Below are positions 1,599-41,599 of a stretch of DNA of 45,929 bases, piece after piece. The DNA is from a virus. The DNA lies in the IMG/VR virus record IMGVR_UViG_3300022561_000003. One strand, given 5' to 3'. The notes beneath the pieces are model-generated. The model worked only from the letters and a program-made list of their open reading frames with translations. It did not search any database and had not been told where the DNA came from. Made by a program: the position numbers and the translations under genes. Position 1 is the stretch's first letter, and every line of letters begins with the position of its first letter.

Positions 1599-1664
1599 CA
1601 CTAATATAAAAACATTCTTTTATAAGATACAAATAATAATAAAATATGAGGAGTTGTATTAATA

Positions 1665-1841
1665 ATGAGAGGTATATTAAATTTAAAGAATATAAATAGT
1701 AATAATAGCTATGAGATAGACTTAAACAAGTACAATAACACAGAGATTAAAATATTAGTAGAATATGATAACACATATGAAATAGAGACTCATGACGGTA
1801 GTGAGTACACAATATTTAAAGAAGAATTAATAACCATATAA
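1665..1841 (+). CDS. hypothetical 58-aa protein (MRGILNLKNI...), not in ORF track; bounded by two dif-like sites
   Basis: RBS gaggag; stop TAA forms the first three bases of TAAAA-gtaacc-TTTTA. Confidence 0.7.
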   Translation: MRGILNLKNINSNNSYEIDLNKYNNTEIKILVEYDNTYEIETHDGSEYTIFKEELITI

Positions 1842-1892
1842 AAGTAACCTTTTATTAGACAAATAATAAATATAAAAAGGAGCGTGTAATAA

Positions 1893-2222
1893 ATGAAAAG
1901 ATTAAGATTTGAATGGTGTTTAGGTGAAGACGTTCCAGAAATTAAAGAAGAGGATAAACAAATAAGAATTACACAACTAGATAATATGTTAATAGAATTG
2001 AAAGAAAAATTATTACTATTAAATAATGTAAATATTGAGGAAAGTGATACAAGAGATTACAGTGGATTATATTACTGTAAAACAGATAAAAGAATAAAGC
2101 CAAGATTTTCAATTAGTATGCGTATGAGAATAATTATAAGTAAAGAGGGAAGAAAAACAACATGGAACGATATTATGAGAACAGTTAACACAATTAAAGC
2201 ACCATACTATGAATTTATATAA
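1893..2222 (+). CDS. hypothetical phage protein
   Basis: 109-aa ORF, RBS aaggag. Confidence 0.75.
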   Translation: MKRLRFEWCLGEDVPEIKEEDKQIRITQLDNMLIELKEKLLLLNNVNIEESDTRDYSGLYYCKTDKRIKPRFSISMRMRIIISKEGRKTTWNDIMRTVNTIKAPYYEFI

Positions 2223-2254
2223 CAATTCAATAATAAACTAAAGGAGCACACACA

Positions 2255-2362
2255 GTGAATAAATTAATAAAATCTTTTTACTTTGAATTAATAGCATCCA
2301 TTACAAGCTTAGCAACAGCATATATCATTTTATGTATATTACTACCTAACATATTAAAATAA
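2255..2362 (+). CDS. small hydrophobic (single TM) protein, 35 aa
   Basis: RBS aaggag, GTG start, hydrophobic stretch ITSLATAYIILCILLP. Confidence 0.5.
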   Translation: MNKLIKSFYFELIASITSLATAYIILCILLPNILK

Positions 2363-2382
2363 TCTTAAAGGAGCGTTAAACA

Positions 2383-2535
2383 ATGATAAATTTAATTAAA
2401 AAATCTATTAACACATTTAATAAAGAGGTTGACAAAATAAACCAGGAGACTAAAATAGACACGATGAAACAAATTGAATTAAACATATTAGATAAAATGT
2501 TACTAAAGACACAAAATTTATTTATTAACAACTAA
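2383..2535 (+). CDS. hypothetical 50-aa protein
   Basis: RBS aaggag, ATG start, open frame to TAA. Confidence 0.55.
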   Translation: MINLIKKSINTFNKEVDKINQETKIDTMKQIELNILDKMLLKTQNLFINN

Positions 2536-2611
2536 ATAATACTTGTATATTTAAAGAAAATTAGTGTATAATAATTATATAATAATTTAATAAAAAGGTG
2601 GCTGATTAATA

Positions 2612-3084: not shown

Positions 3085-3114
3085 ATTGTTAAAATTAAAA
3101 AGGTGGTTTTAATA

Positions 3115-4134
3115 ATGAATAAAGAATATGTATTAAATAATGAAACTTCAAGAATTGAATTACATTTTAGTAAAGAAGAATACGCAGCACTAGACGGAGT
3201 TACTAAAGCAGAATTAAAAAGTATATGCTTATTTTCTGGAAAATCTCAAGCGTGGGTAAGTAGAACTAAAAGTGGCCATTATAAAATAATTAATTTTGCT
3301 GAAAAATTAGGTTTTGTAAATGGTGGATGCAATGGGGAAATATTAACTCATGAAGAAGTAGCAGAAAATAAGATAATTAAACAGGAAGAGCAAATAGAAA
3401 AATCAAATGCAACATATCCTGAAATAGATATAAATGATATAGAGTCATATTTAGTATCAAAGCAATTAAGTGATAATGAAAATAGTAATGCATTTTTTAG
3501 AAATACACCTATAGATCATCAACATCAGCTACAAGAACTACTACAAAGTGCTAACAATGATATAGCAGAATTAAAGAATTTAGGATGTAATAATTATATA
3601 GAATATAAAGCTAAAACTATTCTCCAGAGCTTCAAGAAAAATTATAGTAATCAATATATAAAAGTATTAACTCAAAAGGGTAATAATCCTTCATGGATGG
3701 TAACAGGGCGTGGAAATATGAATGTAAGTAGATATAATAAGAAACAAGATCAACTTTCTAATATGCAACATCAATTATCAATATTAATAGATGAATACAA
3801 TGCAAAGATTAAAAACTTTAAATATCAAATTAAACATGAGAACGCACAAATTGTAAAAATTGAAATAGAAGAGACTTTAAAAAATGTTACTGAAGTATTG
3901 CTGACTAAAATTAGTAGAGAATTTGATCCAAGTGCTGTAGAAAATATATTTAGTAATCCAAGAAGTGAAATAAAAGGATATAGCTACAATGAAGAGTATT
4001 TCTTATTTAAAAATTGGGGATACTGGAGAATATACAATAAATTAGGGAATGAATTAAATGTAACTACAAGAACTATAAAAACATTAAAAGAAGCTAAAAC
4101 TCACTTGTCATATATAATAAATAATGTAGCATAA
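3115..4134 (+). CDS. hypothetical phage protein (possible DUF3560-like)
   Basis: RBS aaggtgg favours ATG 3115; motifs ELHFSK...AWVSR and PSWMVTGRGN recall DUF3560-type phage/plasmid proteins (weak, from memory). Confidence 0.65.
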   Translation: MNKEYVLNNETSRIELHFSKEEYAALDGVTKAELKSICLFSGKSQAWVSRTKSGHYKIINFAEKLGFVNGGCNGEILTHEEVAENKIIKQEEQIEKSNATYPEIDINDIESYLVSKQLSDNENSNAFFRNTPIDHQHQLQELLQSANNDIAELKNLGCNNYIEYKAKTILQSFKKNYSNQYIKVLTQKGNNPSWMVTGRGNMNVSRYNKKQDQLSNMQHQLSILIDEYNAKIKNFKYQIKHENAQIVKIEIEETLKNVTEVLLTKISREFDPSAVENIFSNPRSEIKGYSYNEEYFLFKNWGYWRIYNKLGNELNVTTRTIKTLKEAKTHLSYIINNVA

Positions 4135-4509: not shown

Positions 4510-4677
4510 ATGAATAGAAAATTCAATTTAATTGGTTTTACATCTCCTGAAAATTTAACATTAACAGAAGCTAAAAGAATTTTAGGAAATTCAATTAATA
4601 AATTAATTCCAGGAACTTCTATTAAATTTAATGGTTACGGTAATGGAATTAACTTCACTATAGAAAGATTAAGATAA
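4510..4677 (+). CDS. hypothetical 55-aa protein (MNRKFNLIGF...), not in ORF track
   Basis: RBS ggagg; flanked by TAAAA-N6-TTCTA sites at 4480 and 4683. Confidence 0.7.
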   Translation: MNRKFNLIGFTSPENLTLTEAKRILGNSINKLIPGTSIKFNGYGNGINFTIERLR

Positions 4678-4725
4678 TAGCATAAAATAAAGATTCTATT
4701 AAAATTTTAGGAGGAATATATAATT

Positions 4726-4905
4726 ATGGCACAAAGATATAAAAGCACATTTGAATTCTTTGATATGGAAGAACAAGCAAAAAGATTTTGTGATATTGAA
4801 AATTTGAATAGTTATATTAAAAAATATCACAAGGCACATTATACTCCTTGGAGTAGTCAAGACGGAAAAGAGAATAAATTTGTAGCATGGTATGTAACAA
4901 AATAA
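4726..4905 (+). CDS. hypothetical 59-aa protein (MAQRYKSTFE...), not in ORF track
   Basis: RBS aggagg; flanked by TAAAA-N6-TTCTA sites at 4683 and 4903. Confidence 0.75.
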   Translation: MAQRYKSTFEFFDMEEQAKRFCDIENLNSYIKKYHKAHYTPWSSQDGKENKFVAWYVTK

Positions 4906-4940
4906 AAACCTAATTCTAGTAGAGTCTAAGAGCTTAATTA

Positions 4941-5678: not shown

Positions 5679-5858
5679 ATGTGGCATCCAGTAATTGCCC
5701 ATATAGAAAGTGGAACGAGAATTAACAATGCAATTCATGAACTAGAAGAAGCATTATACCAAGAAGACACATTATGTTTTAATATGGATCAAGAAAAAAC
5801 TTCTCAAATTAAATTAGCAATGGAAATATTAAAAGGAAATAGAAATGATTTAATTTAA
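5679..5858 (+). CDS. hypothetical 59-aa protein (MWHPVIAHIE...)
   Basis: RBS gaggtg, abuts previous stop. Confidence 0.65.
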   Translation: MWHPVIAHIESGTRINNAIHELEEALYQEDTLCFNMDQEKTSQIKLAMEILKGNRNDLI

Positions 5859-6066
5859 AATATCCAATAAAAACACGATTTTATAGTATTTAAAAACTTA
5901 CTCTAGAAATTATAGAGGGTTGTTAAATTATAAGTATTTTATTTACTTTAATTGAAACTATTATTTAATTAAAACGTATATTGTATAATATGGGATATAT
6001 AAAGCAATATCTTATAATTTCAACACGTCTGTAATAATTTACAAACAAATTAAAGGAAGTGATTAT

Positions 6067-8336: not shown

Positions 8337-8519
8337 ATGGAAGATCATTTTCTACTATTCCCAATACTGATTTTAGTAGGTATACTTTATGTAGCATGGT
8401 ACATTATAAAATTGATATGGATTACGTTAGGATTAATATTTATACTAATAAGAAAAATATATCGAAAAATTATGAATAAAAATGTAGAAGGAGTGAATAA
8501 TAACAATGTTATTAGATGA
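8337..8519 (+). CDS. small membrane protein
   Basis: RBS gaggtg; long hydrophobic stretch followed by basic tail. Confidence 0.6.
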   Translation: MEDHFLLFPILILVGILYVAWYIIKLIWITLGLIFILIRKIYRKIMNKNVEGVNNNNVIR

Positions 8520-9390
8520 GTATCTTGAATATCTAAAATCTACAGAAGGTAAGAGCTCTGGAACAATTACACAATATCACAACAGCATGAAGCTATTTAT
8601 GAATTATATGAAAGAAGATAAATACAGCATCACCAGAGAATCAATCAAAAAAATTAAAATATCTGATATTTATGGATTTTTAGCTACAATATCAGAATCT
8701 AATTCAGGAAGCTCCAGAAGAAATAAGATATCAGCATTAAAATCATTCTTTGAGTATTGTAAAGAGATTGAATTAGTAAAGCATAATATAATTGTAGACA
8801 TAAAGAAGCAACCAAAAACTCCAAGACGAATTCCTAAATATTTCAACCTAGATGAATGTAAATTATTAATAAGTTCAGTAGGCAAAAGAAATCTAATTAG
8901 AGATAAAATGATAATAATATTATTTCTATCTACTGGATTAAGATTAACAGAATTAATTAACCTAGATATAAATTGTGTGATTGACAACAACTTAACAATA
9001 ATCGGCAAAGGAAATAAAGAGAGGCCAGTGTATTTGAATCAAAAAATAATAACATTGTTAAAAGAATATCTATTAGAAAGAGGAGAATCAGATTCAAACG
9101 CATTATTCCTTAGTGAGCGAAATAACAGAATTTCTAAGAGTGCAGTACAGAATTTATTAAGAAATGCAATAGACAGAGCTGGATTGAAATTAGAAGGTGA
9201 AACTGACGTCCTAGTGCATGTTTTAAGACACTCGTTTGCTACAAATGAATATCAGAATGGAACAGATATTAGACTCCTCCAGGAAGTGCTAGGACATGAA
9301 GATATAGGAACGACTCAAATTTATACACACGTTAATAAGAAGCAAATGGAAAATCAAGCAGAAAATTCTATAATGAGTAGTATAATATAA
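8506..9390 (+). CDS. XerC/XerD-type tyrosine recombinase
   Basis: All catalytic residues present: TGLRLTEL, GKGNKER, HVLRHSFAT, LGHEDIGTTQIYTH; SAM-like N-terminal domain, 294 aa, no arm-binding domain. Confidence 0.95.
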   Translation: MLLDEYLEYLKSTEGKSSGTITQYHNSMKLFMNYMKEDKYSITRESIKKIKISDIYGFLATISESNSGSSRRNKISALKSFFEYCKEIELVKHNIIVDIKKQPKTPRRIPKYFNLDECKLLISSVGKRNLIRDKMIIILFLSTGLRLTELINLDINCVIDNNLTIIGKGNKERPVYLNQKIITLLKEYLLERGESDSNALFLSERNNRISKSAVQNLLRNAIDRAGLKLEGETDVLVHVLRHSFATNEYQNGTDIRLLQEVLGHEDIGTTQIYTHVNKKQMENQAENSIMSSII

Positions 9391-12767: not shown

Positions 12768-12971
12768 ATGAATAAAAGTGAAGCATATATTTCGATGGAA
12801 CAAGGTAAAAAGATTACACATATATATTTTGATAGTGACGAGTTTCTATATATAAAAGATGGAATTATGTATACAGAAGATAATTACAGATTTGATAATA
12901 GAGATGATGGTTATGATGGTTGGAAAGATAGAAATAGCGAATCATTTCAAAGAGATTGGAATATCTATTAA
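12768..12971 (+). CDS. hypothetical phage protein
   Basis: RBS aggagg; stop begins a dif-like site. Confidence 0.75.
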   Translation: MNKSEAYISMEQGKKITHIYFDSDEFLYIKDGIMYTEDNYRFDNRDDGYDGWKDRNSESFQRDWNIY

Positions 12972-13004
12972 AAGAGAATTTTTATAAGAAAGGAGAAAAA
13001 ACAA

Positions 13005-13562
13005 ATGTTTTTAAACTTATTTAATAGTTCAAAAAGAGATCAAAATATTCAAAATGAAAGAAGTAAAATATATAATGAAATATCTATTATAAATAAACAA
13101 CTTCATGATATATATAATCCTTCCCCAAAAATAAAACCTTGGAGATATAGATTAAATGCAGTACCTACTGATTATGAAGAATTTACTATAAGATATCTTG
13201 AGAATTTAAAAATGAATGAAGTTTTGCACAATAAACCAGAGTATAAAGAATATGGATTGATGAATGATAGTAAAATGAATTTTGAAGAATTAGATAATAA
13301 ATTACAATTAGACACTGATAATAAATATAAGTTATTTGAAATTATAAATGAGCATCAATTAGACGATTTTGAAACTCAAATGTGGGCTGAATCTGCAATT
13401 AAAGATATTCATGTTATAAAGATAAGTGAGCAAGAAAAAGATGAATGTAGGCATAAGTATGGATTAGCTAAAATAGATGATAAGCAACTAGAAACCATCA
13501 AACAATTAAATTCAGAGAAAGAAAATTTAGAAAAACAATTAAACTTGTTACGTAAATTATAA
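13005..13562 (+). CDS. hypothetical protein (putative cassette gene)
   Basis: RBS aaggag; between sites 12969 and 13566. Confidence 0.75.
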   Translation: MFLNLFNSSKRDQNIQNERSKIYNEISIINKQLHDIYNPSPKIKPWRYRLNAVPTDYEEFTIRYLENLKMNEVLHNKPEYKEYGLMNDSKMNFEELDNKLQLDTDNKYKLFEIINEHQLDDFETQMWAESAIKDIHVIKISEQEKDECRHKYGLAKIDDKQLETIKQLNSEKENLEKQLNLLRKL

Positions 13563-13600
13563 TTATAAAACAGGTATTTTATATTAAGGAGGATGAGAAA

Positions 13601-13798
13601 ATGAAATATAAAGTATTAATAGAAATTCAAGGAGAAAAAGATTGCTATAATTGTCCCATAAATGAATCAGTCGGTGGATATGGAAATACAAAATGTAATT
13701 TGCAAGGTGATATGATATTTGATTATGATAGTAAAAATTATGGTAAATCAGATAAGGCTAAACAATTAGAAAAATGTCCATTAAAAGAAATAGAATAA
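13601..13798 (+). CDS. small Cys-rich protein (putative cassette gene)
   Basis: CxxCP...C...CP; between sites 13566 and 13801. Confidence 0.75.
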   Translation: MKYKVLIEIQGEKDCYNCPINESVGGYGNTKCNLQGDMIFDYDSKNYGKSDKAKQLEKCPLKEIE

Positions 13799-13860
13799 TT
13801 TAAAATGTTAATTTTATGGTATGAATAATAAAACTAAAATAAAAATTAGGAGGGGTTTAA

Positions 13861-14106
13861 ATGTCAATTTATGAAATGGTTAAAAAGTTAATAGGAAGTA
13901 TAGAACCGTATGGAGATTCAGGTATTGATGAAAAACGTTCAACTAATCTTGAGGAACACATAGACCTTGTTTTTGGTTTAGTTACTGACTTAATTAAAAC
14001 GGCAGATTTTAAAAATAGAGGTGAAGCTAGTATACAGAAATTAGGAATAGCAGCTAACGATGCCCTATTGGAAATAAAAAATTCGATTGATAATAATATT
14101 GGATAA
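13861..14106 (+). CDS. hypothetical protein (putative cassette gene)
   Basis: RBS aggagg; between sites 13801 and 14104. Confidence 0.75.
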   Translation: MSIYEMVKKLIGSIEPYGDSGIDEKRSTNLEEHIDLVFGLVTDLIKTADFKNRGEASIQKLGIAANDALLEIKNSIDNNIG

Positions 14107-14142
14107 AACTATTATTTTAATATAGGAAGGAGTTGTTAATGA

Positions 14143-16225: not shown

Positions 16226-16522
16226 ATGAGTGAATCAAATAATGAAGTAAGAGGACACTTATGTGAGGGATTAAAGAGATTCCAGGAGAACTCCACTTAT
16301 TCGTGTATACCTAAATTTAATAAAGAGGGTGAAGTTGAGGGGTGTGATGCGACAAATGAAATTAGAATTATATTTTGTCCATTCTGTGGTGAGAAATTAA
16401 TTGAATCGAAAGAATATAAATATACTTGTGTTGAATGTAAAGATACATGGAAATCATATGATAAAAATATAATATGTTGTGACGAATGTTATAGTGGTGA
16501 TTTAACAATAGAAGTGATATAA
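16226..16522 (+). CDS. Cys-rich zinc-finger-like protein
   Basis: FCPFCG, CVEC, CCDEC. Confidence 0.7.
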   Translation: MSESNNEVRGHLCEGLKRFQENSTYSCIPKFNKEGEVEGCDATNEIRIIFCPFCGEKLIESKEYKYTCVECKDTWKSYDKNIICCDECYSGDLTIEVI

Positions 16523-16553
16523 AACATGTCTTTTAAAAGAAGGAGGAAATGGT

Positions 16554-25077: not shown

Positions 25078-25083
25078 TTGAAT

Positions 25084-25111
25084 AGGGGATTAATTTCCCC
25101 TTTATTTATTT
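25084..25111 (+). terminator. rho-independent terminator-like hairpin
   Basis: AGGGGA-ttaatt-TCCCCT followed by T-rich tract. Confidence 0.6.
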
Positions 25112-25127
25112 AAAAAGAGGTGAGTAA

Positions 25128-25604: not shown

Positions 25605-25606
25605 AT

Positions 25607-27166
25607 TTGAGTGATATTTTTATTACAGGAGTTGAAGAAAGGTATCCAAAGGAGTTATTAGAGAATAGAGCAATGCATGAGGGTAATTGTATAGCAATCA
25701 TTTTTAAGGATATTTTAACACTTGATGAAATAAGTTTAAAATCTACTGACTTCATTACTCAGGATGGCAAGTTTTACTTTGAAATAGCCAGTAATGTCCG
25801 TAAGAAAGGGTTTAACGTTATAGACGATGTTACAATCTTCTCAGAATGTGGAGATGTAATTACTAATGGATATGAAAAAAGAGGTGGGTGGCAGTCTATT
25901 CAGGATATTGTAGATGTTGTGAATGACAAGAATGCTGAGAGCTATTTAGATACTCTAGATAGAGAAAATGTAATGTTAAAATTACATGATCTAGGAATGA
26001 ATTTATTAAAACCTATTCAAGATAGTGGAAAAGAAATAATTCCTTATAAGTTGTTTAGAAAAATGGATAGTGAGAGTGTCGTGGAATGGTACGAAAGTAA
26101 AATCAATGAATTTTCTACAAGCAATAGCACTAAGGTTATTGAAGAAGGTAATTTAGAGATAACAGACGAATACTTAGAGGGGTTGCAACAAGGACTAGAA
26201 AGTGGTGTCCCATTCGATATCTGTGGAAAAGACATTAATGGAGAAGACATTAAATGTTTCCCTTATATGAGCAATGAAATAGGTGGATTAATGGATGAAA
26301 CATTAAATATGTTATCAGGATTCAGTTCAAGTGGTAAAACCACAGCATGGACTACAATCATGATGGGATTGCAATATAGAGGAAGGAAAATAATAATTAT
26401 ATCAAATGAACAAAAATCAAGCGTATTTAAAATGCAATTTCTGACATGGCTACTTTCAAAGTATTTTAAGTATTTTAAAGTAACAAAGAAAAAAATAAAG
26501 AATAAGAGTGAACTAACTCAAGAAGATAAAATTATGATTAAAAAGGCTCAAATACTATGGAATGAGAAATATCAAAGTAGTTTTAAATTTGTTAGAATTA
26601 CTGACGCAGATATGTCAGTAGTAAAAAAGAAGGTAAGAAAATATGCGCTTAATGATGGATTTGATACATTCTTGTACGATACTTTTAAAGTTGAATTAGA
26701 TGGTGGAAATGGTGATAATAATCATTTAAAATTAATAAAAGATTCAAGAACTTTAGATATTTTATGTAAGAAGTATAAATTACTTGGTCTTGCAAGTATG
26801 CAGTTAGCTGAAGGAATGGTAGGAACATTATTTTTAAATGCTGGAGTATTATCTCAAAGCAAACAAGTAAAGGAAATATTAGAAAGTCTAACTATGATGA
26901 GGCCTACGTTCCTAGAAGAATTAGACTCCACGAATAAAAAGTTTTATTGTAAACCATTCAGAAGAAAACAAATTAATGGGAAATGGATTCAAGAAGATTA
27001 TACTCCAGATCCGACAGGAGTATATAGGACTATATTCTTTGAGAAAACAAGAAATGGAGTAAGTTCTAATGATACCGGAGTTTGTATGTTATGGAAGTTC
27101 AATGGGAATAATGGAACCTTTGTAGAGTCTGCATATTGCATGCCCAAGCATGGGCGAATAGGTTAA
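25607..27166 (+). CDS. DnaB-like replicative helicase
   Basis: Walker A GFSSSGKTT, ISNEQ, LYDTFK, SMQL, EKTRNG; TTG start with RBS gagggg. Confidence 0.85.
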   Translation: MSDIFITGVEERYPKELLENRAMHEGNCIAIIFKDILTLDEISLKSTDFITQDGKFYFEIASNVRKKGFNVIDDVTIFSECGDVITNGYEKRGGWQSIQDIVDVVNDKNAESYLDTLDRENVMLKLHDLGMNLLKPIQDSGKEIIPYKLFRKMDSESVVEWYESKINEFSTSNSTKVIEEGNLEITDEYLEGLQQGLESGVPFDICGKDINGEDIKCFPYMSNEIGGLMDETLNMLSGFSSSGKTTAWTTIMMGLQYRGRKIIIISNEQKSSVFKMQFLTWLLSKYFKYFKVTKKKIKNKSELTQEDKIMIKKAQILWNEKYQSSFKFVRITDADMSVVKKKVRKYALNDGFDTFLYDTFKVELDGGNGDNNHLKLIKDSRTLDILCKKYKLLGLASMQLAEGMVGTLFLNAGVLSQSKQVKEILESLTMMRPTFLEELDSTNKKFYCKPFRRKQINGKWIQEDYTPDPTGVYRTIFFEKTRNGVSSNDTGVCMLWKFNGNNGTFVESAYCMPKHGRIG

Positions 27167-27180
27167 AGAAAGGAGAATAT

Positions 27181-27738
27181 ATGAGTAAAAAACTTAATGA
27201 ATATAATTTAAGTGGTGAATATGGGATAGGATATACCTCAAAAGGAACTGAATTTTATTTTGATATAGAAGATTATAATAAAATTAAAAATTTTACGTGG
27301 TATATTGGCAAAGATGGGTACGTAGTTGAAAAATATAAAAAGATAATGACTAGAATGCATAGATTAGTTATGAAACTAAATAAAGATAATCCTATTAAGG
27401 TGGATCATATTGATAGAAAACGAAATGATAACAGAAAAATGAATCTAAGATTTGCAACATCTAGTAAAAATGGCATGAATAAAGGATTACAAAGTAACAA
27501 TAGCACTGGATTTGTTGGAGTTTCATGGGATAAAAAGAATAATAAGTGGTATACTGCAATTAAAATAAATCAAAAAGTTGTTTTCATAGGAAGATTTAGT
27601 GATATAGATATTGCTATAACAGAAAGACTTAAAGCAGAAATAAAATACTTTGGAAAAGAATTTGCACCACAAAGAAATTTATTTGAAGAATATGGAATTG
27701 CTCAAGAGAAACAATTAAACAATAATTTAGTTTGCTAA
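27181..27738 (+). CDS. HNH endonuclease with C-terminal AP2 domain
   Basis: MHRLVM..VDHIDRKRNDNRKMNLR, STGFVGVSW..KW; RBS aaggag favours ATG 27181. Confidence 0.9.
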   Translation: MSKKLNEYNLSGEYGIGYTSKGTEFYFDIEDYNKIKNFTWYIGKDGYVVEKYKKIMTRMHRLVMKLNKDNPIKVDHIDRKRNDNRKMNLRFATSSKNGMNKGLQSNNSTGFVGVSWDKKNNKWYTAIKINQKVVFIGRFSDIDIAITERLKAEIKYFGKEFAPQRNLFEEYGIAQEKQLNNNLVC

Positions 27739-27765
27739 TAATCTCAAAAAGTTAGGTGAATATAA

Positions 27766-28785
27766 ATGAAAGAAATTAAGGAACTTTTATTATCTAATCC
27801 AGAACATATAGAAAATATACTCGTAACTCTTGGGTTTTATAAAGTTCATAAATATAAACAAGAAATCATGTGCTGCAACTCAGAAAAAGGAACAGGAGCT
27901 TCTATCCATATTAAACTTAATGATAGCATATCATGTAAGGACTATAAATATGGTGAGAAAGGTGATATATTCTCATTTCTTATGAAGAAAAGGCAAATAG
28001 AATTGGTAGATGTTCTAAATATAATTAAACAAGAACTTGGAATAGATTCTTTTACTTTCTCAGAAAAGCCAACAAATAATGTATTTGGAGGAGCCTACCG
28101 TAAGATAAAGAGAAATTCTCCGGATGAAAATAAAGATATAATTCTTCCGGAAGATACTTTAATTCCTTATTCTAATAAACTTAATATGAGATTTCTAAGA
28201 GATGGCATAAGCTTTGAGACACAAAGGAAATTTCAGATAGGGTTAGATCCATTTACACAGAGAATAACAATTCCTTGGAGAAATTTACAAGGAGAATTAA
28301 TAGGAATTATGGGTAGGTATGCAGGTAATGAGGAAGAAATACCTAGGTGGATGCCAGTAATACCTTTTCCTAAATTAAATGCTTTGTATGGATATTCAAG
28401 TAATTATAAATACCTTGTAGATTGTGATGTTTTATATCTCGGAGAAAGTGAAAAATTCGTACTTTTTTTGGACTCGGTAGGTATAAATACTTGTTTAGCA
28501 ATAGGAAGAAGTGAAATATCTTCAGGACAAATTAAAAGAATAATATCTCTTAATCCTAAAGAAATAATATACTGCATGGATGAAGGACTTCCAGAGGAAA
28601 TAAATATTAAGAACGTTAAGTTAACGCAACAGTTTTTGAAGTATCATAATATAAAAATAGGATACGTCTATGATGAAAATAATGAACTATTGCCAAAGGA
28701 CTCAAAGGCATCACCTACAGATTTTAATAAAGATATATTCTTGAGATTAGTTACAGAAAAAGTTAAGGAGGTGTTAGTATCTTAG
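27766..28785 (+). CDS. phage DNA primase (TOPRIM), YorJ-like
   Basis: GDIFSF, RITIPWRN..G.LIGIMGR, LYG, GESEK, CMDEG. Confidence 0.8.
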   Translation: MKEIKELLLSNPEHIENILVTLGFYKVHKYKQEIMCCNSEKGTGASIHIKLNDSISCKDYKYGEKGDIFSFLMKKRQIELVDVLNIIKQELGIDSFTFSEKPTNNVFGGAYRKIKRNSPDENKDIILPEDTLIPYSNKLNMRFLRDGISFETQRKFQIGLDPFTQRITIPWRNLQGELIGIMGRYAGNEEEIPRWMPVIPFPKLNALYGYSSNYKYLVDCDVLYLGESEKFVLFLDSVGINTCLAIGRSEISSGQIKRIISLNPKEIIYCMDEGLPEEINIKNVKLTQQFLKYHNIKIGYVYDENNELLPKDSKASPTDFNKDIFLRLVTEKVKEVLVS

Positions 28786-31700
28786 ATTTAATAAATAGAA
28801 TAATGCCAACATTGAAATTTAAGTTTCCATATACAGCAGAAGAATACTTAGAAAATTTATTTGTGGAAAATTATCACAAACATACAGATTATAGTAATGT
28901 TTTTTCACCGGATAGTGCGGAGTCTATTGAAAACTATGCGAAAAATACAGTCTTGTATTCAGGAAAGTGCCTTTTTAGTGGTGAGCATGGTAGTCAAGGC
29001 AATGTATTTCTTACATATAAGGTGGCTCAAGAGAATGGTTTGAAATACAGACATTCGACAGAGGCATATTGGGTAAAAGATAGAGTAAAAGAATATCCTG
29101 AAATTGATAAGGAAACAGGAAAATACAAAGTAGATGCAAAAACAGGAGAGATTAAAACTCATAAAGACAGAGCTAATTGTCATATCGTCTTAGTTGCAAG
29201 GAATCAGGAAGGACAAGAAGATATAAATTTTGCTTTATCCCTTGCAAATGAGGAAGGATATTATTATAAACCTAGATTAGATTTAGAATTACTTTTAAAT
29301 ATTCCTAAAAATAATATTTATGTATCGAGTGCGTGTATTGCAGGTTGGAAATATGAAGATGCTGAAGAAATGTGGCTAAAGATTCATAAACACTTTGGAG
29401 GTAATTTCTTCTTGGAGGTACAAACTCATAATACTCTTCCTCAGAAGGAATTAAATCAGAAAATATCAAGAATAGCAAAAGAAAATAATATTCAATTGAT
29501 ATGTGGTTTAGATAGTCACTTTACCAATCAAGAAAATAGTATTAAAAGAGATCAAATTCTTAAATATAAGGGTGTAACTTATGCAGAAGAAGAAGGTTGG
29601 TATCTTGATTATCCTAATGGAAAAGAGATATTTAAAAGGTTTAAGGAACAAGGAATTTTAAATAATACAGAAATTCTAACAGCTATGATGAACACGAATG
29701 TTTTTATTAATGAATGTGAAGAAACTTCTTTTGATAAGAGCTTTAAAATACCTTGTATATATCCAGGAACCACCTATGCAGAAAGAGCAATAATATTCAA
29801 AAAGATAATAAATGAGAGATATAAGCTTGAAAAACTTAAAACTCCTGAAAAAGTAAAAGGAATTATATATGAAGTTGAACAAATTGTAGATAGTGGAGTT
29901 GTAGATTATTTCTTATTGAATGATAAAATTATTCAGAAAGCAGTAAATGATTATGAAGGGATATTAACTACTACATCCAGAGGAAGTTCTGCTTCATTTA
30001 TAGTCAATAAACTCTTAGGATTTACTACAATTGATAGATTTAATTCAGAAATACCTATATATCCAGAAAGATTTTTAACAAAAGAAAGAGTTATGAGTGG
30101 ACAAATGCCAGATATAGATATGAATATCGCAAAACAGGAACCATTTATTCAAGCTACCAGAGATTTACTTGGTGAACATAGTTGTTATCCTTTGGTTTCT
30201 ATAGAAAAGCTCAAGAAGAAAGCAGCATGGCAACTATATGCTGGAGCAAATGACGTAGCTCCTGAAGATGCAAATGAAATATCTAAGTTTATATCAAAAT
30301 ATGATGAGAAAATGAAATATGCAGAAGAAATAGATAGAGAATTTATTCTAGTAGAAGATTTCATTCCAGAAGAGTATATGTCTTTATATGAACAGAGTTT
30401 AGAATATCAAGGAATTACTATTAATGCTAAAGCTCATCCTTGTGGATATTTATTGCTCGAAGGTGACATCCGCCGTAAGGTAGGATTAATAAGGACTACA
30501 TCTGAAACAACAGGTAAGTTTGTATTATGTGCTAATATTGATGGAGCTTATCTTGACGAATTTGGATATGTAAAAAATGATTTTCTTATAGTAGACAGTG
30601 TTCATTTGGTTTATGAATTATTTAAAAGTATTGGCAGAGAAGTTCCTAGCTTTGACGAACTTAGAGAAATGATAAAAGGAGATAAACCTACTTGGGATAT
30701 TTATGCAAATGGAATAACTTGTTGTATAAATCAATGCGAAAAAGAATCTACAACTAAGAAAGTAATGCAATATAAACCACAAAATTTAGCGGAGAGCTCA
30801 GCACTAATTGCCGGAATTCGTCCAGGTTTCAAATCTCTTCTTGGAAATTTCCTAGCGAGAGAACCTTATTCTACTGGAGAACCAGTAATAGATACTCTTT
30901 TAGAAGATACCTTTCATCAAATGCTGTATCAAGAAAATTTAATGAAGATACTTGCGTTCTTAGGAGTTCCTATGACAGACGCATATAGTGTAATAAAAGC
31001 TATAAGTAAAAAGAAACTAAAAGGAGAAAAGCTTGAAAAATTAGAGAATACACTAAAAGAAAATTGGTTGAAAATTATAGGTAATTTAGACAACTTTGAA
31101 AAGGTTTGGCAAGTATTTAATGATTCTGCCCGATATTCATTTAATGCACCCCATGCTTTGTCAATGGGAGGAGATAGTGCTTATGAAGCTTGGTTTAAGG
31201 CTCATCATACAGCAAAATTCTATGAAGTATCAATTAATCACTATCAGGCTAAGAACAAGAAAGATAAGATAGATGCTCTTATCAAAGAATCTATGATTCA
31301 CTTTGGATATAGATTAGGAGATTATGAATTTGAAAAAGATAATAGAAAAGTAAATGTGGATGAGGAAAACAAAATAATATATCCTAATTTATCTAGTATA
31401 AAAGGATTTGGAGAAGGGGTTTCTACTAAGCTATATGAAATGGGATTATCTAATTACACTGATTTTACTGTATTCCTAGATGATTTAAAAGGTGGAAAGA
31501 TAAATCGTACAGTAGTAAGCAAACTTATTAAACTAAACTACTTCAAGAAGTTTGGAGGAATAAATTATCTTTTAGAAGTTATGAATTGGTATGATACTTT
31601 AAAAGATACTAAGGAAATATTTAAAACAAAAGTAGTAGAATTAGGACTATCTTTAGAAGATGTATTGACATACGGAAATGAAACTGCTAAAAAGGTAACG

Positions 31701-32132
31701 AAATTAAGAACCGATGATTTGCTTAAGGATATTATATCTAAAGTAAAAGATACTCCTTTAACTCTTCAAGAAACTATTAAAAATCAAAAGGAAATACTTG
31801 GAATAATAACTCATGTTGATCCTTCCTATTCAGATAAAGTATTCTTTGTTTCAGAGTTAGAAGTTTTGAAGTCTATTACAAATATGAAACTCTACAGAAT
31901 CAAAGACGGTAAGCTTATAGACTTAAAAATGTGGAGTAGCAAGTTTTCTAAAGATGAATTTGTATTGGGAGATTTTCTTTGCCTAACAAAAGTAGATAAG
32001 AAAAATCGTCAGACTCCAACAGGAGAGATTAATCTTGATACCGGGAAGAAAATATATATGGATGTAGAAGATGTTTTTGAGTTTTGGTTAAATAAATATA
32101 AAGTTATAACATATGAATTTAATGAGGATTAA
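28779..32132 (+). CDS. dnaE: DNA polymerase III alpha subunit (start probably ATC 28779; first ATG 28803)
   Basis: PHP motifs NYHKHTDYS, EH, DSH; SRGS, PDIDMN, KNDFL, RYSFNAPHA. Confidence 0.93.
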   Translation: MLDLINRIMPTLKFKFPYTAEEYLENLFVENYHKHTDYSNVFSPDSAESIENYAKNTVLYSGKCLFSGEHGSQGNVFLTYKVAQENGLKYRHSTEAYWVKDRVKEYPEIDKETGKYKVDAKTGEIKTHKDRANCHIVLVARNQEGQEDINFALSLANEEGYYYKPRLDLELLLNIPKNNIYVSSACIAGWKYEDAEEMWLKIHKHFGGNFFLEVQTHNTLPQKELNQKISRIAKENNIQLICGLDSHFTNQENSIKRDQILKYKGVTYAEEEGWYLDYPNGKEIFKRFKEQGILNNTEILTAMMNTNVFINECEETSFDKSFKIPCIYPGTTYAERAIIFKKIINERYKLEKLKTPEKVKGIIYEVEQIVDSGVVDYFLLNDKIIQKAVNDYEGILTTTSRGSSASFIVNKLLGFTTIDRFNSEIPIYPERFLTKERVMSGQMPDIDMNIAKQEPFIQATRDLLGEHSCYPLVSIEKLKKKAAWQLYAGANDVAPEDANEISKFISKYDEKMKYAEEIDREFILVEDFIPEEYMSLYEQSLEYQGITINAKAHPCGYLLLEGDIRRKVGLIRTTSETTGKFVLCANIDGAYLDEFGYVKNDFLIVDSVHLVYELFKSIGREVPSFDELREMIKGDKPTWDIYANGITCCINQCEKESTTKKVMQYKPQNLAESSALIAGIRPGFKSLLGNFLAREPYSTGEPVIDTLLEDTFHQMLYQENLMKILAFLGVPMTDAYSVIKAISKKKLKGEKLEKLENTLKENWLKIIGNLDNFEKVWQVFNDSARYSFNAPHALSMGGDSAYEAWFKAHHTAKFYEVSINHYQAKNKKDKIDALIKESMIHFGYRLGDYEFEKDNRKVNVDEENKIIYPNLSSIKGFGEGVSTKLYEMGLSNYTDFTVFLDDLKGGKINRTVVSKLIKLNYFKKFGGINYLLEVMNWYDTLKDTKEIFKTKVVELGLSLEDVLTYGNETAKKVTKLRTDDLLKDIISKVKDTPLTLQETIKNQKEILGIITHVDPSYSDKVFFVSELEVLKSITNMKLYRIKDGKLIDLKMWSSKFSKDEFVLGDFLCLTKVDKKNRQTPTGEINLDTGKKIYMDVEDVFEFWLNKYKVITYEFNED

Positions 32133-32771: not shown

Positions 32772-33146
32772 ATGAAATTTCAAATCGGATCAAGTTTAAA
32801 AGTTAAAGAGGGTTTAGTAGAAGGCCGGTATTACAATGGAATGAATGGAGTATATTTCAACCCAGATATGGAGAAGTATTGTGGCATGGAAGCAAATGTA
32901 GTAGAAATTGAAAATGATAAATATAAATTAGATATTGACGATGGAGATTGGAGCTGGAATAATGCTATGGTAGAGGAAGTAATAGATTTTGAAGTAGGAA
33001 ATTTTGTTAAAGTTACAGATGGTGAATATCTTGGAGTAATACAAAATATTATACCGGATGATAATGGTAATAAAATGTATAGTTTAGACAAAAACAATGT
33101 ATATTTATTCAGTAAAGATCAATTAGAATTAATAAATAACAACTAA
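32772..33146 (+). CDS. two-module SH3-like phage protein, related to a module of 19808..21517
   Basis: DM.KY....LDIDDGDWSW vs DM.RY....LEIDGGDWSW. Confidence 0.75.
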   Translation: MKFQIGSSLKVKEGLVEGRYYNGMNGVYFNPDMEKYCGMEANVVEIENDKYKLDIDDGDWSWNNAMVEEVIDFEVGNFVKVTDGEYLGVIQNIIPDDNGNKMYSLDKNNVYLFSKDQLELINNN

Positions 33147-33631: not shown

Positions 33632-33772
33632 TTAACAAATAATTTTGGGGTTAAAATGAAAGAAATATCAGAACTTGAAACCTACTCATAGCCCCATTCT
33701 AAATCTGTTAAAAGAGCCATTTTAATAGATGAATAATATGAAAAAAATGTGTAACTAAAGGGAGTGATAAAA

Positions 33773-33997
33773 ATGTGTAAATATTGTGAGGGCGGAGAAT
33801 TACTTTATAAAGGAACTTGGTGGGAAGTTAGAATTTATAATGATTACGGTGAACGTGAATTATGTTCCGAGATTGATATACCAGGATATGCGGGTGTTTG
33901 TGATAATGTGACAGTAGATATTAAATTTTGTCCAATGTGTGGGAAAGAATTAACAAGTAAATCTAAATATCAAATAGAGGAAGAGAACTTAAAATAA
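33773..33997 (+). CDS. small zinc-finger protein (putative cassette gene)
   Basis: CKYC...FCPMCG; between sites 33709 and 34029. Confidence 0.75.
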   Translation: MCKYCEGGELLYKGTWWEVRIYNDYGERELCSEIDIPGYAGVCDNVTVDIKFCPMCGKELTSKSKYQIEEENLK

Positions 33998-34207
33998 TTA
34001 CGTCACACTTCAACCAAAGGATGTATTTTAAAAGGTCAATTTTATATTAATATTTATTACAATTAAACAATAATTTATAGGCTAGATTTAGCTAAATTAT
34101 TAAAAGTTGAAACTGGCTTATATCCCCATAGTCAATGTTATAAAAGGAAAATTTTATAAGATGAATGTAACAACTAAATAATAATTAAATTAGAGGAGGT
34201 TTTTGTT

Positions 34208-35452: not shown

Positions 35453-35544
35453 ATAATAATTTAGAAATTCAGTTAAAACATTCATTTTAAGATAAGAAAG
35501 GAGATAATATTATTAAAAATTCAAGATTAGGAGAATCAAAAAAA

Positions 35545-38950: not shown

Positions 38951-40569
38951 AAAAGCAATGGAATATAATTAATAAATGTCCATCAAGCGAAAACATGATT
39001 GAAAATATTTTGACTGCACGTGGAATATTAGATATTAAACATTTTCTAAATCCTATCCCCTCAGATTTAATACCTATTGATAAATTAATAAACATGGATA
39101 AATCAGTGGAAATAATAACTGAAGGTATAAAAGATAATAAAAGATTTACAATATTTTATGACGCTGCCGATGTTGATGGAATTGCAAGTGGTACAATTAT
39201 GAGAAAATATTTAGCGAACTTTACTGATAAAGTAGAATATGTTTTCGGGCTTGGTAAAAAACATGGTTTGAAATGTATAGACTTAGATAAAGTAATTGAG
39301 ATAACAGATATTCTTATAATAGTAGATTCTTCTACAGGAGATCATGAGCAACAAAATTATCTTCAATCTAATGGAGTAACAGTAATTATATATGACCATC
39401 ATCCAGAACCTATAAATCCTAATGTTTGTACAGTAAGTAGCCAGTATTTATATCCTAATAGTCAATTAAGTGGCTCAGGGGTTACGTGGAAGGCTTGTTT
39501 AGCATTAGATAATGCTTTGGGTACAAATTATGCTCTTGATTATATTGATCTTGCAGCGATAGGAATATTAGCAGATGTATCAAGTATAGGAGAAAAATAT
39601 ATGGAAAACAGACTCCTTGTCAGCTTAGGCATGAAAAACTTAAAAAATACAGCAATCAAGATTATATTGGGATCCTACGATTTTAACTCTCAGAGTGTGT
39701 TATTCTCAATTGCACCATTAATCAATAGCTCGGCAAGGTTATCTAAAAATCAGCTAGTAATTGATTTTATGATGGAGGATGATAAGAAAAAAGCCAAGAA
39801 ATTATATAATCAATTGGTGGAAATAAAAGAGGAACAGAAAATTCTAGTTGATATAGCTACTAAAAGTCTTACTGAACAAATAGAAAAACAAGATTATGTA
39901 AACAATAAAGTAGTATATGGTTTTGTAAATGTAGGTGAGCTAACTGGGTTAATTGGTAGTAAGCTTTGTGAAGCATATGGCAAACCTGCAATAATATTAA
40001 AAACTCCTATAGTTGGAGCTTCAAAGTTAACCGGCTCAATAAGGGCTGTTGGAATTGATAACTTTAAATCTCTCATCAACAATTCAGGTTTAGGAAAGGC
40101 CTATGGTCACGAAAGTGCAGCAGGAGTATTTATTCAAGTTGACAGTCTTCAGCCTCTATTAGAAAAGTTGAATGAAGTTCTAAAAGATGTAGAATTTAAA
40201 ACAGAAGAGGATATTGATATTCAACTCGAACCAGAAGAAATAACTACAGAGTTAATTAAACAAATGGAAAAGGTTAATAGATTAACAGGGAAAGACTTCA
40301 AGCCTATAACAGTTTATATAGAGGGTGTAGAGCCTCAAAATGTGAGCAATATGAAAGCTGGTCAACATACGAAATTCGATGCGGAGGATTTAGAGTGCAT
40401 AAAATGGAATTCTCAGCTACATGAAGATTTAAAATATACAAAAGGGATATACAATCGAATGGATATATTTGGAACGTTAACTTTAGGTAATTTTCGTGGA
40501 GTTAAAACTAAACAAGTAATTATTCAGGATACAAGAAATTTGGAGCAGAATTTAGAATTCTTCAGATAA
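38947..40569 (+). CDS. recJ: RecJ-like DHH ssDNA exonuclease
   Basis: DADVDG-like motif, IIVDS, YDHH, LSGSGV, LADV, GSIR, GHESAAG. Confidence 0.9.
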   Translation: MKKQWNIINKCPSSENMIENILTARGILDIKHFLNPIPSDLIPIDKLINMDKSVEIITEGIKDNKRFTIFYDAADVDGIASGTIMRKYLANFTDKVEYVFGLGKKHGLKCIDLDKVIEITDILIIVDSSTGDHEQQNYLQSNGVTVIIYDHHPEPINPNVCTVSSQYLYPNSQLSGSGVTWKACLALDNALGTNYALDYIDLAAIGILADVSSIGEKYMENRLLVSLGMKNLKNTAIKIILGSYDFNSQSVLFSIAPLINSSARLSKNQLVIDFMMEDDKKKAKKLYNQLVEIKEEQKILVDIATKSLTEQIEKQDYVNNKVVYGFVNVGELTGLIGSKLCEAYGKPAIILKTPIVGASKLTGSIRAVGIDNFKSLINNSGLGKAYGHESAAGVFIQVDSLQPLLEKLNEVLKDVEFKTEEDIDIQLEPEEITTELIKQMEKVNRLTGKDFKPITVYIEGVEPQNVSNMKAGQHTKFDAEDLECIKWNSQLHEDLKYTKGIYNRMDIFGTLTLGNFRGVKTKQVIIQDTRNLEQNLEFFR

Positions 40570-40593
40570 TAATTTATAGGAGGTAATAAAAAT

Positions 40594-40854
40594 ATGGATA
40601 TTGAGAAACAATTATTTGAAATATTTCAAACTAAAAATAATAAATATGATTTATATATAACTCTTGTAAAGTTTTGCAAGAATTTAGAAAATGATACTAG
40701 AGGAGAGGAAAATTCTGAATTTTATTTAAAAGTAACAGAATTACAAAATAGCATTAACAATGCAGGATGGGAAGAAAGGCATTCGGAACAAATAAGTTAT
40801 TTAAATAAATTACAAGGTGAAATTTCAGATAAATATGAAGATTATTTGTACTAA
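40594..40854 (+). CDS. hypothetical phage protein
   Basis: RBS aggaggt. Confidence 0.7.
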   Translation: MDIEKQLFEIFQTKNNKYDLYITLVKFCKNLENDTRGEENSEFYLKVTELQNSINNAGWEERHSEQISYLNKLQGEISDKYEDYLY

Positions 40855-40914
40855 AACAGTAATAATTTAAAATAACCTTTTTATAAGAATTAATAATAAC
40901 AGAGGAGTGATATT

Positions 40915-41472
40915 GTGTCAGCAACAAATAGAGGAACAGTTCGAGCAACAGCAGATTTTTACGCTACACCAGAAAAAGTGATTCATAATTTATTAAATCA
41001 TTATAAAATAAAAGATGGTGAAATACTAGAGCCATCCGCAGGTAATGGTAACTTTACTAAGGTGATAAAAGAAAGAGAAGGAGATAAAGTGTTTATTACT
41101 TCGCTAGAATTAAGAGAAGAAGAATCTGAAAATCTTAAAGAATATAGTGATAATGTCATAATAACAGATTTCCTAAAATTCAAGACTAATAAAAAATACG
41201 GAACCATCATAGGTAATCCACCTTATAGTTTAGCAATGGAATTTATAGAACATTGTTTTGAAATAGGTGATGAGAATACAGAAATAATTATGTTGCTCAG
41301 AACTGCATTTTTAGAAAGTAAAAAGAGATATGATTTCTGGCAGAAACATCCTGTTAACGGATTATATGTTCTAAGTCAAAGACCATCATTTACTGGTCAT
41401 GGTACAGATGCTACATCTTATGCATTCTTTGTATGGAATAATAGTGGGAAACAAGAAATAAAAGTTATATAA
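40915..41472 (+). CDS. small DNA N6-adenine methyltransferase
   Basis: DFYATP, ILEPSAGNG, IIGNPPY. Confidence 0.88.
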   Translation: MSATNRGTVRATADFYATPEKVIHNLLNHYKIKDGEILEPSAGNGNFTKVIKEREGDKVFITSLELREEESENLKEYSDNVIITDFLKFKTNKKYGTIIGNPPYSLAMEFIEHCFEIGDENTEIIMLLRTAFLESKKRYDFWQKHPVNGLYVLSQRPSFTGHGTDATSYAFFVWNNSGKQEIKVI

Positions 41473-41475
41473 CTC

Positions 41476-41504
41476 TTGACAACTAAATAATAATTTGGTA
41501 AGAT
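41476..41504 (+). promoter_or_regulatory. sigma-A promoter overlapped by operator-like motif
   Basis: TTGACA-17-TAAGAT with extended TG; ACAACTAAATAATAATT 41479-41495. Confidence 0.8.
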
Positions 41505-41599
41505 ATACACAAGGAGTTAATCATAAGGAAAGGAGGATAAATATCCAATAAAATTTAACTTTTATATGATGATTAAATAATAATTTTAGGAGGTCATGT

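Follow-up and report, generated by a model that had tools for sequence, protein, structure and literature searches.

A 16-base DNA word, TAAAA-N6-TTTTA (hereafter M1, always meaning the exact form), recurs between genes in a 45,929-nucleotide stretch of viral DNA from IMG/VR virus record IMGVR_UViG_3300022561_000003. This stretch, here called the window, corresponds to bases 2892-48820 of one 125,827-bp phage contig. M1 is a real and selected element that is intergenic, symmetric in sequence, unstructured and conserved across phage lineages. The safest statement about its nature is that its form suggests a duplex-DNA site bound by a symmetric dimer. A transcriptional role, in which M1 sites serve as operators or roadblocks for a dimeric DNA-binding regulator, is possible, and is the reading we tentatively prefer.

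The window contains 19 copies of M1 against an expectation of 1.15 (standard deviation 1.07); the richest shuffle held 5 copies, and none of 100 shuffles reached 19. When the spacer was varied from N0 to N15, counts were 2, 2, 1, 3, 0, 1, 19, 3, 0, 0, 1, 2, 2, 2, 0 and 0, giving a single peak at N6. Across the whole genome, 23 copies occurred at N6 versus 4.5 expected from 20 dinucleotide shuffles, with each other spacer from N0 to N13 yielding 1-5 copies, and 20 of the 23 lie within the rightward early/replication half. An earlier note on this DNA had counted 16 exact cores; the exact number is 19, and the strong excess it described stands, as does its estimate that one or two cores would arise by chance. 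It had also anticipated that enrichment would be confined to six-base spacers and intergenic copies, as we found. Its statements that all spacers differ (true of the 19 sites in the window and of the 23 in the genome) and that the core genes at 22.6-33.6 kb lack sites (none lies between 22414 and 33709) were likewise borne out. The one- and two-mismatch variants it listed fared less well, as the one-mismatch class is not enriched in either the genome (58 versus 78 expected) or the window (15 versus approximately 24.5). Three such variants that share a TTCTA right arm (4480, 4683 and 4903) do stand at successive gene ends and perhaps form a local sub-family.

Placement between genes was assessed with composition-matched control words and the interiors of open reading frames (ORFs) of at least 60 aa in five motif-bearing genomes, which together hold 115 M1 copies; gene calls throughout are our own greedy, uncurated ORF calls. 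M1 had 94 copies outside and 21 inside ORF interiors, whereas the corresponding counts were 2 and 10 for ATTTT-N6-AAAAT, 8 and 14 for TTTTA-N6-TAAAA, and 3 and 16 for AAAAT-N6-ATTTT. Intergenic M1 thus exceeds matched words by 12-47 fold. Intragenic copies, being near the level of control words, are about as numerous as chance would give, and the intergenic copies constitute the selected class.

The motif recurs in other phages. Two close relatives in IMG/VR, whose DNA polymerases are 82-84% identical to that of this phage, carry M1: G001 (122 kb, complete) has 31 copies against 0 of the reversed word, and G002 (a 58-kb fragment) has 10 against 1. A group at approximately 60% polymerase identity shows no enrichment (0, 6 and 0 copies versus controls of 3, 3 and 0). 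A search with an alignment of Xer proteins yielded 69 other phage loci. Among these, two distant lineages have M1 with the same N6 peak, namely G009 (18 copies, control 3) and the pair G010/G011 (39 and 16, controls 7 and 1). These share few proteins with the phage, mostly at 22-46% identity with three at 51-59%, and by profile search only tyrosine recombinases, a GIY-YIG-like endonuclease, a tape-measure-like protein and a head protease are common to all motif-bearing lineages. Only 68 of 208 ORFs are common to the relatives, and nearly every accessory gene differs within the clade. No relative closer than approximately 75-80% nucleotide identity was found. Megablast of the replication module against phage records and alignment of the portal against bacterial genomes returned nothing, the ligase query found no locus in IMG/VR, and the Xer genes of G009 and G010 as queries found no further close relatives. 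The best tblastn match of the polymerase was 52%, a query with an 81-aa protein found one distant locus, and a metagenome scan with the Xer protein found one 1.5-kb contig.

M1 half-sites follow a symmetric consensus, T-[C/A]-W-T-W-TAAAA, with T at -5 in 80 and C at -4 in 57 of 128 half-sites. The mirrored flank consensus reaches position 10, the inner 5 bp of the arms are invariant, and the two A/T tracts lie one helical turn apart. Flanks of the same site do not covary: at flank positions 1-6 of 64 sites from three genomes, 140 complementary pairs were counted versus 142.2 expected from column composition (p = 0.62). The 11-bp arms described in the earlier note therefore hold as a mirrored half-site consensus, while individual flanks are no more self-complementary than column composition predicts. 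The 26-nt sites have a mean minimum free energy of -1.3 kcal/mol. The lack of covariation and weak folding together exclude an RNA hairpin, a cruciform and an attC-like folded strand, and a sequence that is symmetric but unstructured suggests that each half-site is recognized separately on double-stranded DNA, i.e., by a symmetric dimer. An intrinsic terminator or other structured RNA was also rejected: there is no stable stem and no covarying helix, no Rfam family matches the window, and terminator-like matches numbered 1 and 3 in 39 kb with none at an M1 site.

Despite its symmetric core, M1 is directional in its gene context. A ribosome-binding site (RBS) lies no more than 16 nt downstream of 31 of the 115 sites versus 3 in a mirrored control, i.e., the same test on the opposite side of each site, and in-frame stop codons formed by the upstream-arm TAA number 23 versus 10. 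The typical junction order is stop, M1, RBS, start. In the window, TAA is the stop of the upstream gene at 5 of the 19 exact sites (1839, 12969, 14104, 16520 and 22414). Two further positions had been named as such: the TAA at 4903 is indeed a stop but belongs to a one-mismatch variant, and 12134 is not within one mismatch of M1. Six single genes of the window are bracketed by M1 sites. The claim that every exact copy stands at a gene boundary is correct for 17 of the 19; the copies at 20995 and 21460 are in frame within ORF 19808..21517. The phrog_7488 domain of this 569-aa product also exists as a separate 124-aa protein (32772..33146), and its 497-aa homologue in G001 likewise has one internal and one end site. 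The in-frame copy at 20995 looks like a fossil gene junction that has been read through.

Table. Coordinates of M1 sites, variants and recognizable genes in the window
Feature	Position	Strand	Context
M1 (TAAAA-acattc-TTTTA)	1607..1622		8 nt past stop of 1365..1598; 42 nt ahead of ATG 1665
M1	1839..1854		Stop of 1665..1841; 38 nt ahead of ATG 1893
M1	3096..3111		Spacer AGGTGG resembles the RBS of a conserved 343-aa gene (3103/3115..4134)
One-mismatch TAAAA-N6-TTCTA	4683..4698		Right after stop of 4510..4677
One-mismatch TAAAA-N6-TTCTA	4903..4918		Stop of 4726..4905
M1	5868..5883		9 nt past stop of 5679..5858
Xer-family tyrosine recombinase, 294 aa	8506..9390	+	Phage_integrase and SAM_1 domains; catalytic blocks conserved; candidate M1 binder only if M1 is a recombination site
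M1	12969..12984		Stop of 12768..12971; AGGAG starts 6 nt downstream; ATG 13005
M1	13566..13581		3 nt past stop of 13005..13562; AAGGAGG 4 nt downstream; ATG 13601
M1	13801..13816		2 nt past stop of 13601..13798; ahead of conserved 81-aa gene
M1	14104..14119		Stop of 81-aa gene 13861..14106; ATG 14143
M1	16520..16535		Stop of 16226..16522; adjoins RBS of NAD ligase; position kept in G001
M1	19449..19464		35 nt past stop of 19144..19413; 42 nt ahead of -35 hexamer 19506
M1 copy	20995..21010		In frame in ORF 19808..21517; followed by AAGGAAGGAG, then the phrog_7488 domain
M1 copy	21460..21475		Inside 3' end of ORF 19808..21517
M1	22414..22429		Stop of 22213..22416; 40 nt ahead of -35 (22469) of replication-module promoter
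Replication module	22637..32132	+	AAA_24/Sak4-like, DnaB-like helicase, primase, DNA polymerase III alpha; M1 at none of its junctions
M1	33709..33724		First past the 11-kb site-free replication module; 39 nt ahead of 33764
M1	34029..34044		31 nt past stop of 33764..33997; 12 nt ahead of promoter-like TTACAA
M1	34141..34156		Best palindrome beyond the core (complementary at 10 of 11 flank positions)
M1	35474..35489		Starts 30 nt after start of TTGACA promoter-like element, over its -10/start region
M1	40868..40883		31 nt ahead of 185-aa adenine methylase gene; no site at orthologous place in G001
M1	41549..41564		Between promoter 41476 and ATG 41600; no site at orthologous place in G001
MazF-domain protein	within window
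Bro/Ant protein and NAD-dependent ligase	within window
Two DNA methylases, RecJ, several HNH endonucleases	within window
Anaerobic ribonucleotide reductase, intein-bearing	within window

All real genes of the window point rightward, and the structural and lysis genes point leftward in the remainder of the genome. Pfam and PHROG scans left approximately 50 small window ORFs without a known family, mixed with recognizable genes. G+C content is 27-30%, and no tRNA genes occur in the window. In its DNA polymerase, the phage shares 34-35% identity with the large Clostridium phages c-st and phiCD211. Genes outside the window make up what resembles a plasmid-prophage toolkit (genome 57543-59225, 65207-66217, 117325-118956, 122776-123636 and 60236-60811): a large serine recombinase, a second tyrosine integrase, an FtsK/SpoIIIE-like protein, an actin-like ParM/Alp partition protein and a RepL/MarR-like winged-helix protein of 191 aa that is 61% identical in both close relatives. 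Cse60-like and Holliday-junction resolvase-like proteins are also encoded. This gene content suggests a large temperate phage that probably infects a low-G+C anaerobic spore-former and is maintained as a plasmid.

In the operator reading, a sequence-specific dimer, encoded by phage or host, would read the two M1 half-sites. Bound at many intergenic sites and a few promoters, it would keep the early operons, which are rich in accessory genes, silent or insulated in a temperate phage that probably lives as a plasmid, in the manner of the stoperators of Cluster A mycobacteriophages. The effect on transcription is something we infer. M1 lies approximately 40 nt upstream of a -35 element at 19449 and 22414, 12 nt upstream at 34029, over the -10/start region at 35474, approximately 40 nt downstream of the start at 41549, or near no promoter. 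This variable spacing argues for occupancy or a roadblock as opposed to a fixed promoter element. Genomes carry approximately 20-30 M1 sites in short intergenic regions; this number and placement match those given for stoperators, 20 to 30 sites that are mostly off promoters and block elongation (PMC6550527, in the sections consulted), and so support the operator reading. The plasmid-prophage toolkit makes plausible a lysogenic state in need of genome-wide silencing. The number of sites, their intergenic placement and their variable relation to promoters also fit the dispersed-operator system known from the plasmid prophage P1.

Several observations weigh against an operator. No Cro/CI-type helix-turn-helix protein was detected by Pfam and PHROG among 74 window and 96 other proteins, the sole helix-turn-helix match being the weak one of the RepL/MarR-like protein (genome 60236..60811). 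BLAST and profile searches found no regulator-like protein common to the three motif-bearing lineages. Although immunity operators tend to diverge quickly, phages that have few proteins in common (at 22-60% identity) carry the very same core; a host factor or a recombinase would explain such constancy more readily than a repressor of the phage. M1 spacers are G+C-richer than the genome in all five genomes (0.33-0.45 versus 0.26-0.32), a feature that an operator leaves unexplained. A -10-like hexamer lies upstream of M1 at 23 of 115 sites versus 22 in the mirrored control, so association with promoters is not general. The absence of M1 from 38 conserved junctions (see below), though confounded with gene module, is not predicted by this reading. 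Finally, six consecutive genes of G009 (58-120 aa) are parted by TAA-AA-N6-TTTTA-TAGGAGAAAAT-ATG junctions, and one M1 per junction through such a run is more than a roadblock needs; 13 of the 18 sites of this genome fall in 8 kb.

A symmetric dimeric site may also serve recombination. M1 copies would then be core sites of the recombinase encoded at 8506..9390 and would bound exchangeable gene modules, making them a phage counterpart of pdif or, loosely, of integrons. We regard this explanation as unlikely. It corresponds to the cassette proposal of the earlier note, two foundations of which are sound. First, the recombinase is intact: it aligns at full length with XerA (E = 6e-32; its closest solved relatives are XerA) and XerD (E = 1e-26) through the RLxEL, GKGNKER, HxLRH, LGH and QIYTH blocks, among which lie the residues we take to be catalytic, and matches IntI4 over residues 208-277 only (E = 1e-16). 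It is a genuine and apparently active Xer relative, and its G001 orthologue (46% identity) retains all catalytic blocks. Second, the Xer/dif geometry of 11-6-11 is matched by dyad arms, a strict 6-bp center, an invariant inner 5 bp and enrichment at N6 alone. In the sections consulted of PMC5357621, dif consists of two 11-bp half-sites around a 6-bp center, and the arms of the single-recombinase sites difSL and difH end in GAAAA beside the center, which the inner arms of M1 resemble. Within a module (7920-11080) that is conserved in G001, the recombinase gene is accompanied by a small ORF and by genes for a basic protein of 108 aa, a coiled-coil-like protein of 211 aa and a protein of 312 aa whose integrase-like PHROG match is faint. 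A near-perfect 35-bp palindrome (11090-11124) lies just past this module.

Further observations fit this reading. The g0/G001 Xer profile finds matches in all three motif-bearing lineages (E = 8e-58 in G010 and 1e-35 in G009), and 13 of the 18 sites of G009 lie within 11 kb downstream of its recombinase gene, in a small-gene array with stop-site-RBS-ATG junctions. We classified 411 junctions in three close genomes, 13 of the 64 sites being intragenic and left out. M1 was present at none of 38 conserved junctions of at least 10 nt versus 48 of 286 others (Fisher p = 0.003), comprising 15 of 113 synteny breakpoints and 33 of 173 accessory-accessory junctions. Regardless of junction length, M1 marked 2 of 56 conserved, 15 of 143 breakpoint and 33 of 212 accessory junctions (p = 0.045); the two conserved junctions with M1 are orthologues of each other, from the late genes of G001 and G002. 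The contrast is confounded, as conserved junctions are almost all in the replication and structural modules. One arrangement resembles an insertion: G001 has the 81-aa gene, a site and the ligase gene, whereas here the 81-aa gene is followed by a site, several genes, a second site and the ligase gene. G+C-richer variable spacers recall those of pdif (Table 1 of PMC13141974, part of which was consulted), and Holliday-junction resolvase-like and FtsK-like proteins are encoded.

Other data oppose site-specific exchange. In the same part of PMC13141974, pdif exchange is seen only between identical or near-identical spacers, whereas here a 5/6 spacer match occurs in 0 of 253 pairs and in 0 of 465 pairs of G001; in G010 such matches number 7 of 528, which is chance level. 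An apparent avoidance of similar spacers in three genomes (2 versus 7.7, P = 0.014) was not replicated in G009 (1 versus 1.3) or G010 (7 versus 8.0) and came to 10 versus 16.9 over five genomes (P = 0.04); had it held, it would itself have hinted at recombination. Gene content breakpoints were proposed to fall in the spacers, which was not the case in the one near-identical pair of genomes found. G010 and G011, with 100% identical flanks, differ by one replaced segment (8.9 versus 4.6 kb); neither of its ends carries a site, the closest M1 copies being 3.2 kb and at least 0.4 kb off. This is a single event in another lineage. The two loci (L140, G010:21000-38000; L141, G011:67200-80000) are otherwise identical. 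In G011, the left breakpoint adjoins 275 bp that recur in inverted form (98.9%) 4.9 kb away, so that the segment may be invertible or the assembly at fault.

Sites and genes also part company. Orthologues of the 185-aa methylase gene and of its downstream promoter exist in G001, yet M1 brackets them here only; sites are thus gained and lost while the gene stays in place. The late-gene junction that carries M1 in G001 and G002 involves no cassette. M1 is at closest 2.6 and 3.6 kb from the xer gene, whereas single-recombinase systems keep dif beside xer (PMC5357621, in the part consulted). The motif is missing from phages whose Xer is more similar to the one encoded here (L071, 38% identity, 0 copies in 19.3 kb; L072/G013, 36%, 1 copy in 90.5 kb against a control of 8), while G009, with 24%, has it. 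No dif-like palindrome common to the xer flanks of seven phages was recognized amid A/T-rich noise. Four glacier-metagenome DNA runs (X1-X4), and no RNA run, were listed as containing the phage. The four consist of contigs only, which are blind to rare circles and deletions, and these yielded no trustworthy deletion or circle junction for window positions 3000-22999. At 15 contig joints the shorter side measured 20-23 letters in all but three cases and never more than 36; they were not counted as junctions because many end at promoters or at copies of a second repeat, M2, described below. Among the 16 distinct loose-end places listed, only 3090 is at an M1 site.

The cassette proposal is thus partly supported: its geometry, its recombinase, the placement of sites at variable junctions and the single bracketed genes stand, whereas no pair of compatible spacers was found in this genome. 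That a single phage Xer acting on M1 constitutes a pdif- or integron-like system peculiar to large, A/T-rich, plasmid-living phages seems to us slightly less likely still. With unique spacers, exchange would be confined to the same junction of two co-resident genomes, or would proceed by one-strand exchange with replication or a junction resolvase. Promoterless RBS-ORF modules would then be swapped between related phages and a single genome left unscrambled.

M1 might instead bind a conserved protein, of the host or an unrecognized one of the phage, with an architectural or segregational function, e.g., as a centromere-like, spore-entrapment or nucleoid-organizing site on a plasmid prophage of a spore-former. 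Host ParB sites are 16-bp palindromes, and copies of ParB sites in phi29 are reportedly linked to spore entrapment. That very distant phages have the identical core speaks for a partner that evolves slowly, and ParM/Alp-like partition, FtsK/SpoIIIE-like and Cse60-like proteins are encoded. However, such sites need not shun coding sequence, and nothing in this function accounts for an RBS within 16 nt at 31 sites against 3 mirrored. One Clostridiaceae genome, reached through an NrdD match and not known to be the host, shows no enrichment (106 copies versus 88 of the reversed word in 3.8 Mb). We consider this function quite improbable.

The directional tie to RBSs and in-frame stops, together with the regular stop-site-TAGGAGAAAAT-ATG junctions of G009, could be taken to mean that M1 acts in mRNA, as an intercistronic processing site or a translational operator that forms a small A-U hairpin. 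A five-pair A-U stem would be unstable at the folding energies found, the flanks show no covariation, the arms are conserved in sequence beyond mere complementarity, and the window is without an Rfam match. Moreover, the sites at 19449 and 22414 lie upstream of promoters and, if transcribed, would occupy the extreme 3' end of a transcript. An mRNA signal is accordingly very unlikely.

Still less probable is that M1 is a promoter or part of one, of sigma-70 type or for a phage factor. M1 is A/T-rich, precedes genes, and reads TATAAAA or TATAAGA where arm and flank join. However, conservation of a -35 element is absent 17 nt upstream, and the M1 arms are just 6 bp apart. By eye, the RBS begins 2-8 nt past M1 at at least 17 sites, so that a transcript starting downstream would be without it. 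The window has no more sigma-70-like matches than shuffled sequence (146 versus 148; 117 versus 117), and the genome has a separate, well-conserved TTGACA-N17-TAnnnT promoter family. An origin of M1 in A/T-rich composition, to which low G+C and an intragenic count (21) near that of control words (10-16) might lend color, is refuted for the intergenic copies by the shuffle counts, the N6-only peak, the intergenic excess and recurrence in other genomes, and has a negligible claim.

The promoter family comprises approximately 12 near-identical copies of TTGACAAYTAAAYAATAATTTRG-TAnnAT on both strands, at 11576, 19506, 22469, 32703 and 41476 of the window and 52384, 83778, 95756, 111748, 114763 and 116271 of the genome. 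In G001 the family takes another form, TTGACAATACGAAWRTAATATAGTATAMT. The spacer of these promoters is conserved and partly palindromic, and might act as an operator in its own right. By eye, a conserved, -10-like AAAATATAAYTAAGT precedes M1 by a few bases at no fewer than 8 of 33 G010 sites (e.g., 21429, 95838, 101303, 102177, 108286 and 119574), where M1 would cover the transcription start; this arrangement also fits the operator reading of M1. The second and commoner repeat, M2, (A)ACAATTAAAYAATAATT, occurs at 15333-15347, 19777-19791 and 23879-23893 of the window and in 30 other places of the genome; its palindromic part, AATTA-N5-TAATT, has 33 copies versus 4.1 expected. M2 is oriented with transcription and lies within the spacers of TTGACA promoters or right before ribosome-binding sites.

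Other features of the genome are unrelated to M1. NrdD (window 42347-45670) is split by an intein that carries a LAGLIDADG homing endonuclease. The load of homing endonucleases is unusually heavy, with at least 12 genes (HNH, GIY-YIG, endonuclease VII-like and LAGLIDADG), many of them amid structural genes. Window 6539-7648 encodes a 369-aa protein, absent in G001, with an N-terminal MazF/PemK endoribonuclease domain and an uncharacterized C-terminal part.

M1 is thus one invariant DNA word that marks junctions of the variable parts in at least three phage lineages otherwise sharing almost nothing. If it is an operator, uncultivated phages of low-G+C anaerobes would possess a circuit that silences or insulates across the whole genome, and the motif would provide a handle for finding the regulator and for spotting phages of this kind in metagenomes. 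Should it prove to be a recombination site, it would represent the first described system of site-specific gene-module exchange in a phage and bear on the origin of phage mosaicism.

Integron cassettes are promoterless RBS-ORF units with a conserved element at the 3' end, arrayed near a tyrosine recombinase gene. Arrays of M1 resemble them in carrying promoterless RBS-ORF units with an element at the 3' end of the ORF near such a gene. The attC sites of integrons are long imperfect palindromes that are read as folded single strands and conserved in structure over sequence. M1 is the reverse case, conserved in sequence without structure, and the phage recombinase matches XerA and XerD far better than IntI4. 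The lack of covariation, the poor folding and the sequence-invariant arms led us to reject an attC-like site.

The PeSLs of T4-type phages are also repeated intergenic motifs in hyperplastic regions of small non-essential genes with gene turnover, but combine a strong sigma-70 promoter with a terminator stem-loop and are shuffled by homologous recombination (PMC2839356, as far as consulted). M1 has neither promoter nor stem-loop, and homologous exchange would need a longer, unbroken repeat. With no -35/-10 signal tied to the sites, no stem and no terminator there, identity with PeSLs was rejected; the family of M2 and promoter repeats is the closer analogue. Single-recombinase sites (difSL/XerS, difH/XerH and archaeal dif/XerA) share with M1 near-palindromic arms that end in AAAA next to the center, and a single recombinase works on both of their arms; they differ in being one per replicon, beside xer, for dimer resolution (PMC5357621, same part), whereas M1 has 23 sites with none by xer. 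The pdif sites of Acinetobacter (XerC/XerD) have the same 11-6-11 layout, A/T-rich inner arm ends and variable G+C-richer spacers, and occur many per replicon, bounding accessory modules. They differ in that two unlike arms (XerC and XerD sides) give orientation, modules alternate, and identical or near-identical spacers occur within one plasmid (PMC13141974, same part). M1, in contrast, has identical arms, would require a lone phage Xer and offers no compatible spacer pair in the genome.

Stoperators of Cluster A phages differ from M1 in being 13-bp, asymmetric and transcription-oriented sites for a monomeric repressor, with a consensus that varies by subcluster (PMC6550527, same sections). 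M1 is a palindrome with a free 6-bp center and a core identical in very distant phages, and no repressor was recognized among the 170 ORFs scanned. What the two have in common is the arrangement that leads us to favor an operator for M1: in L5 and Bxb1, as here, 20-30 highly conserved sites are dispersed through the short intergenic regions of small-gene operons, with few at promoters (PMC6550527 and PMC9283540, in the sections consulted).

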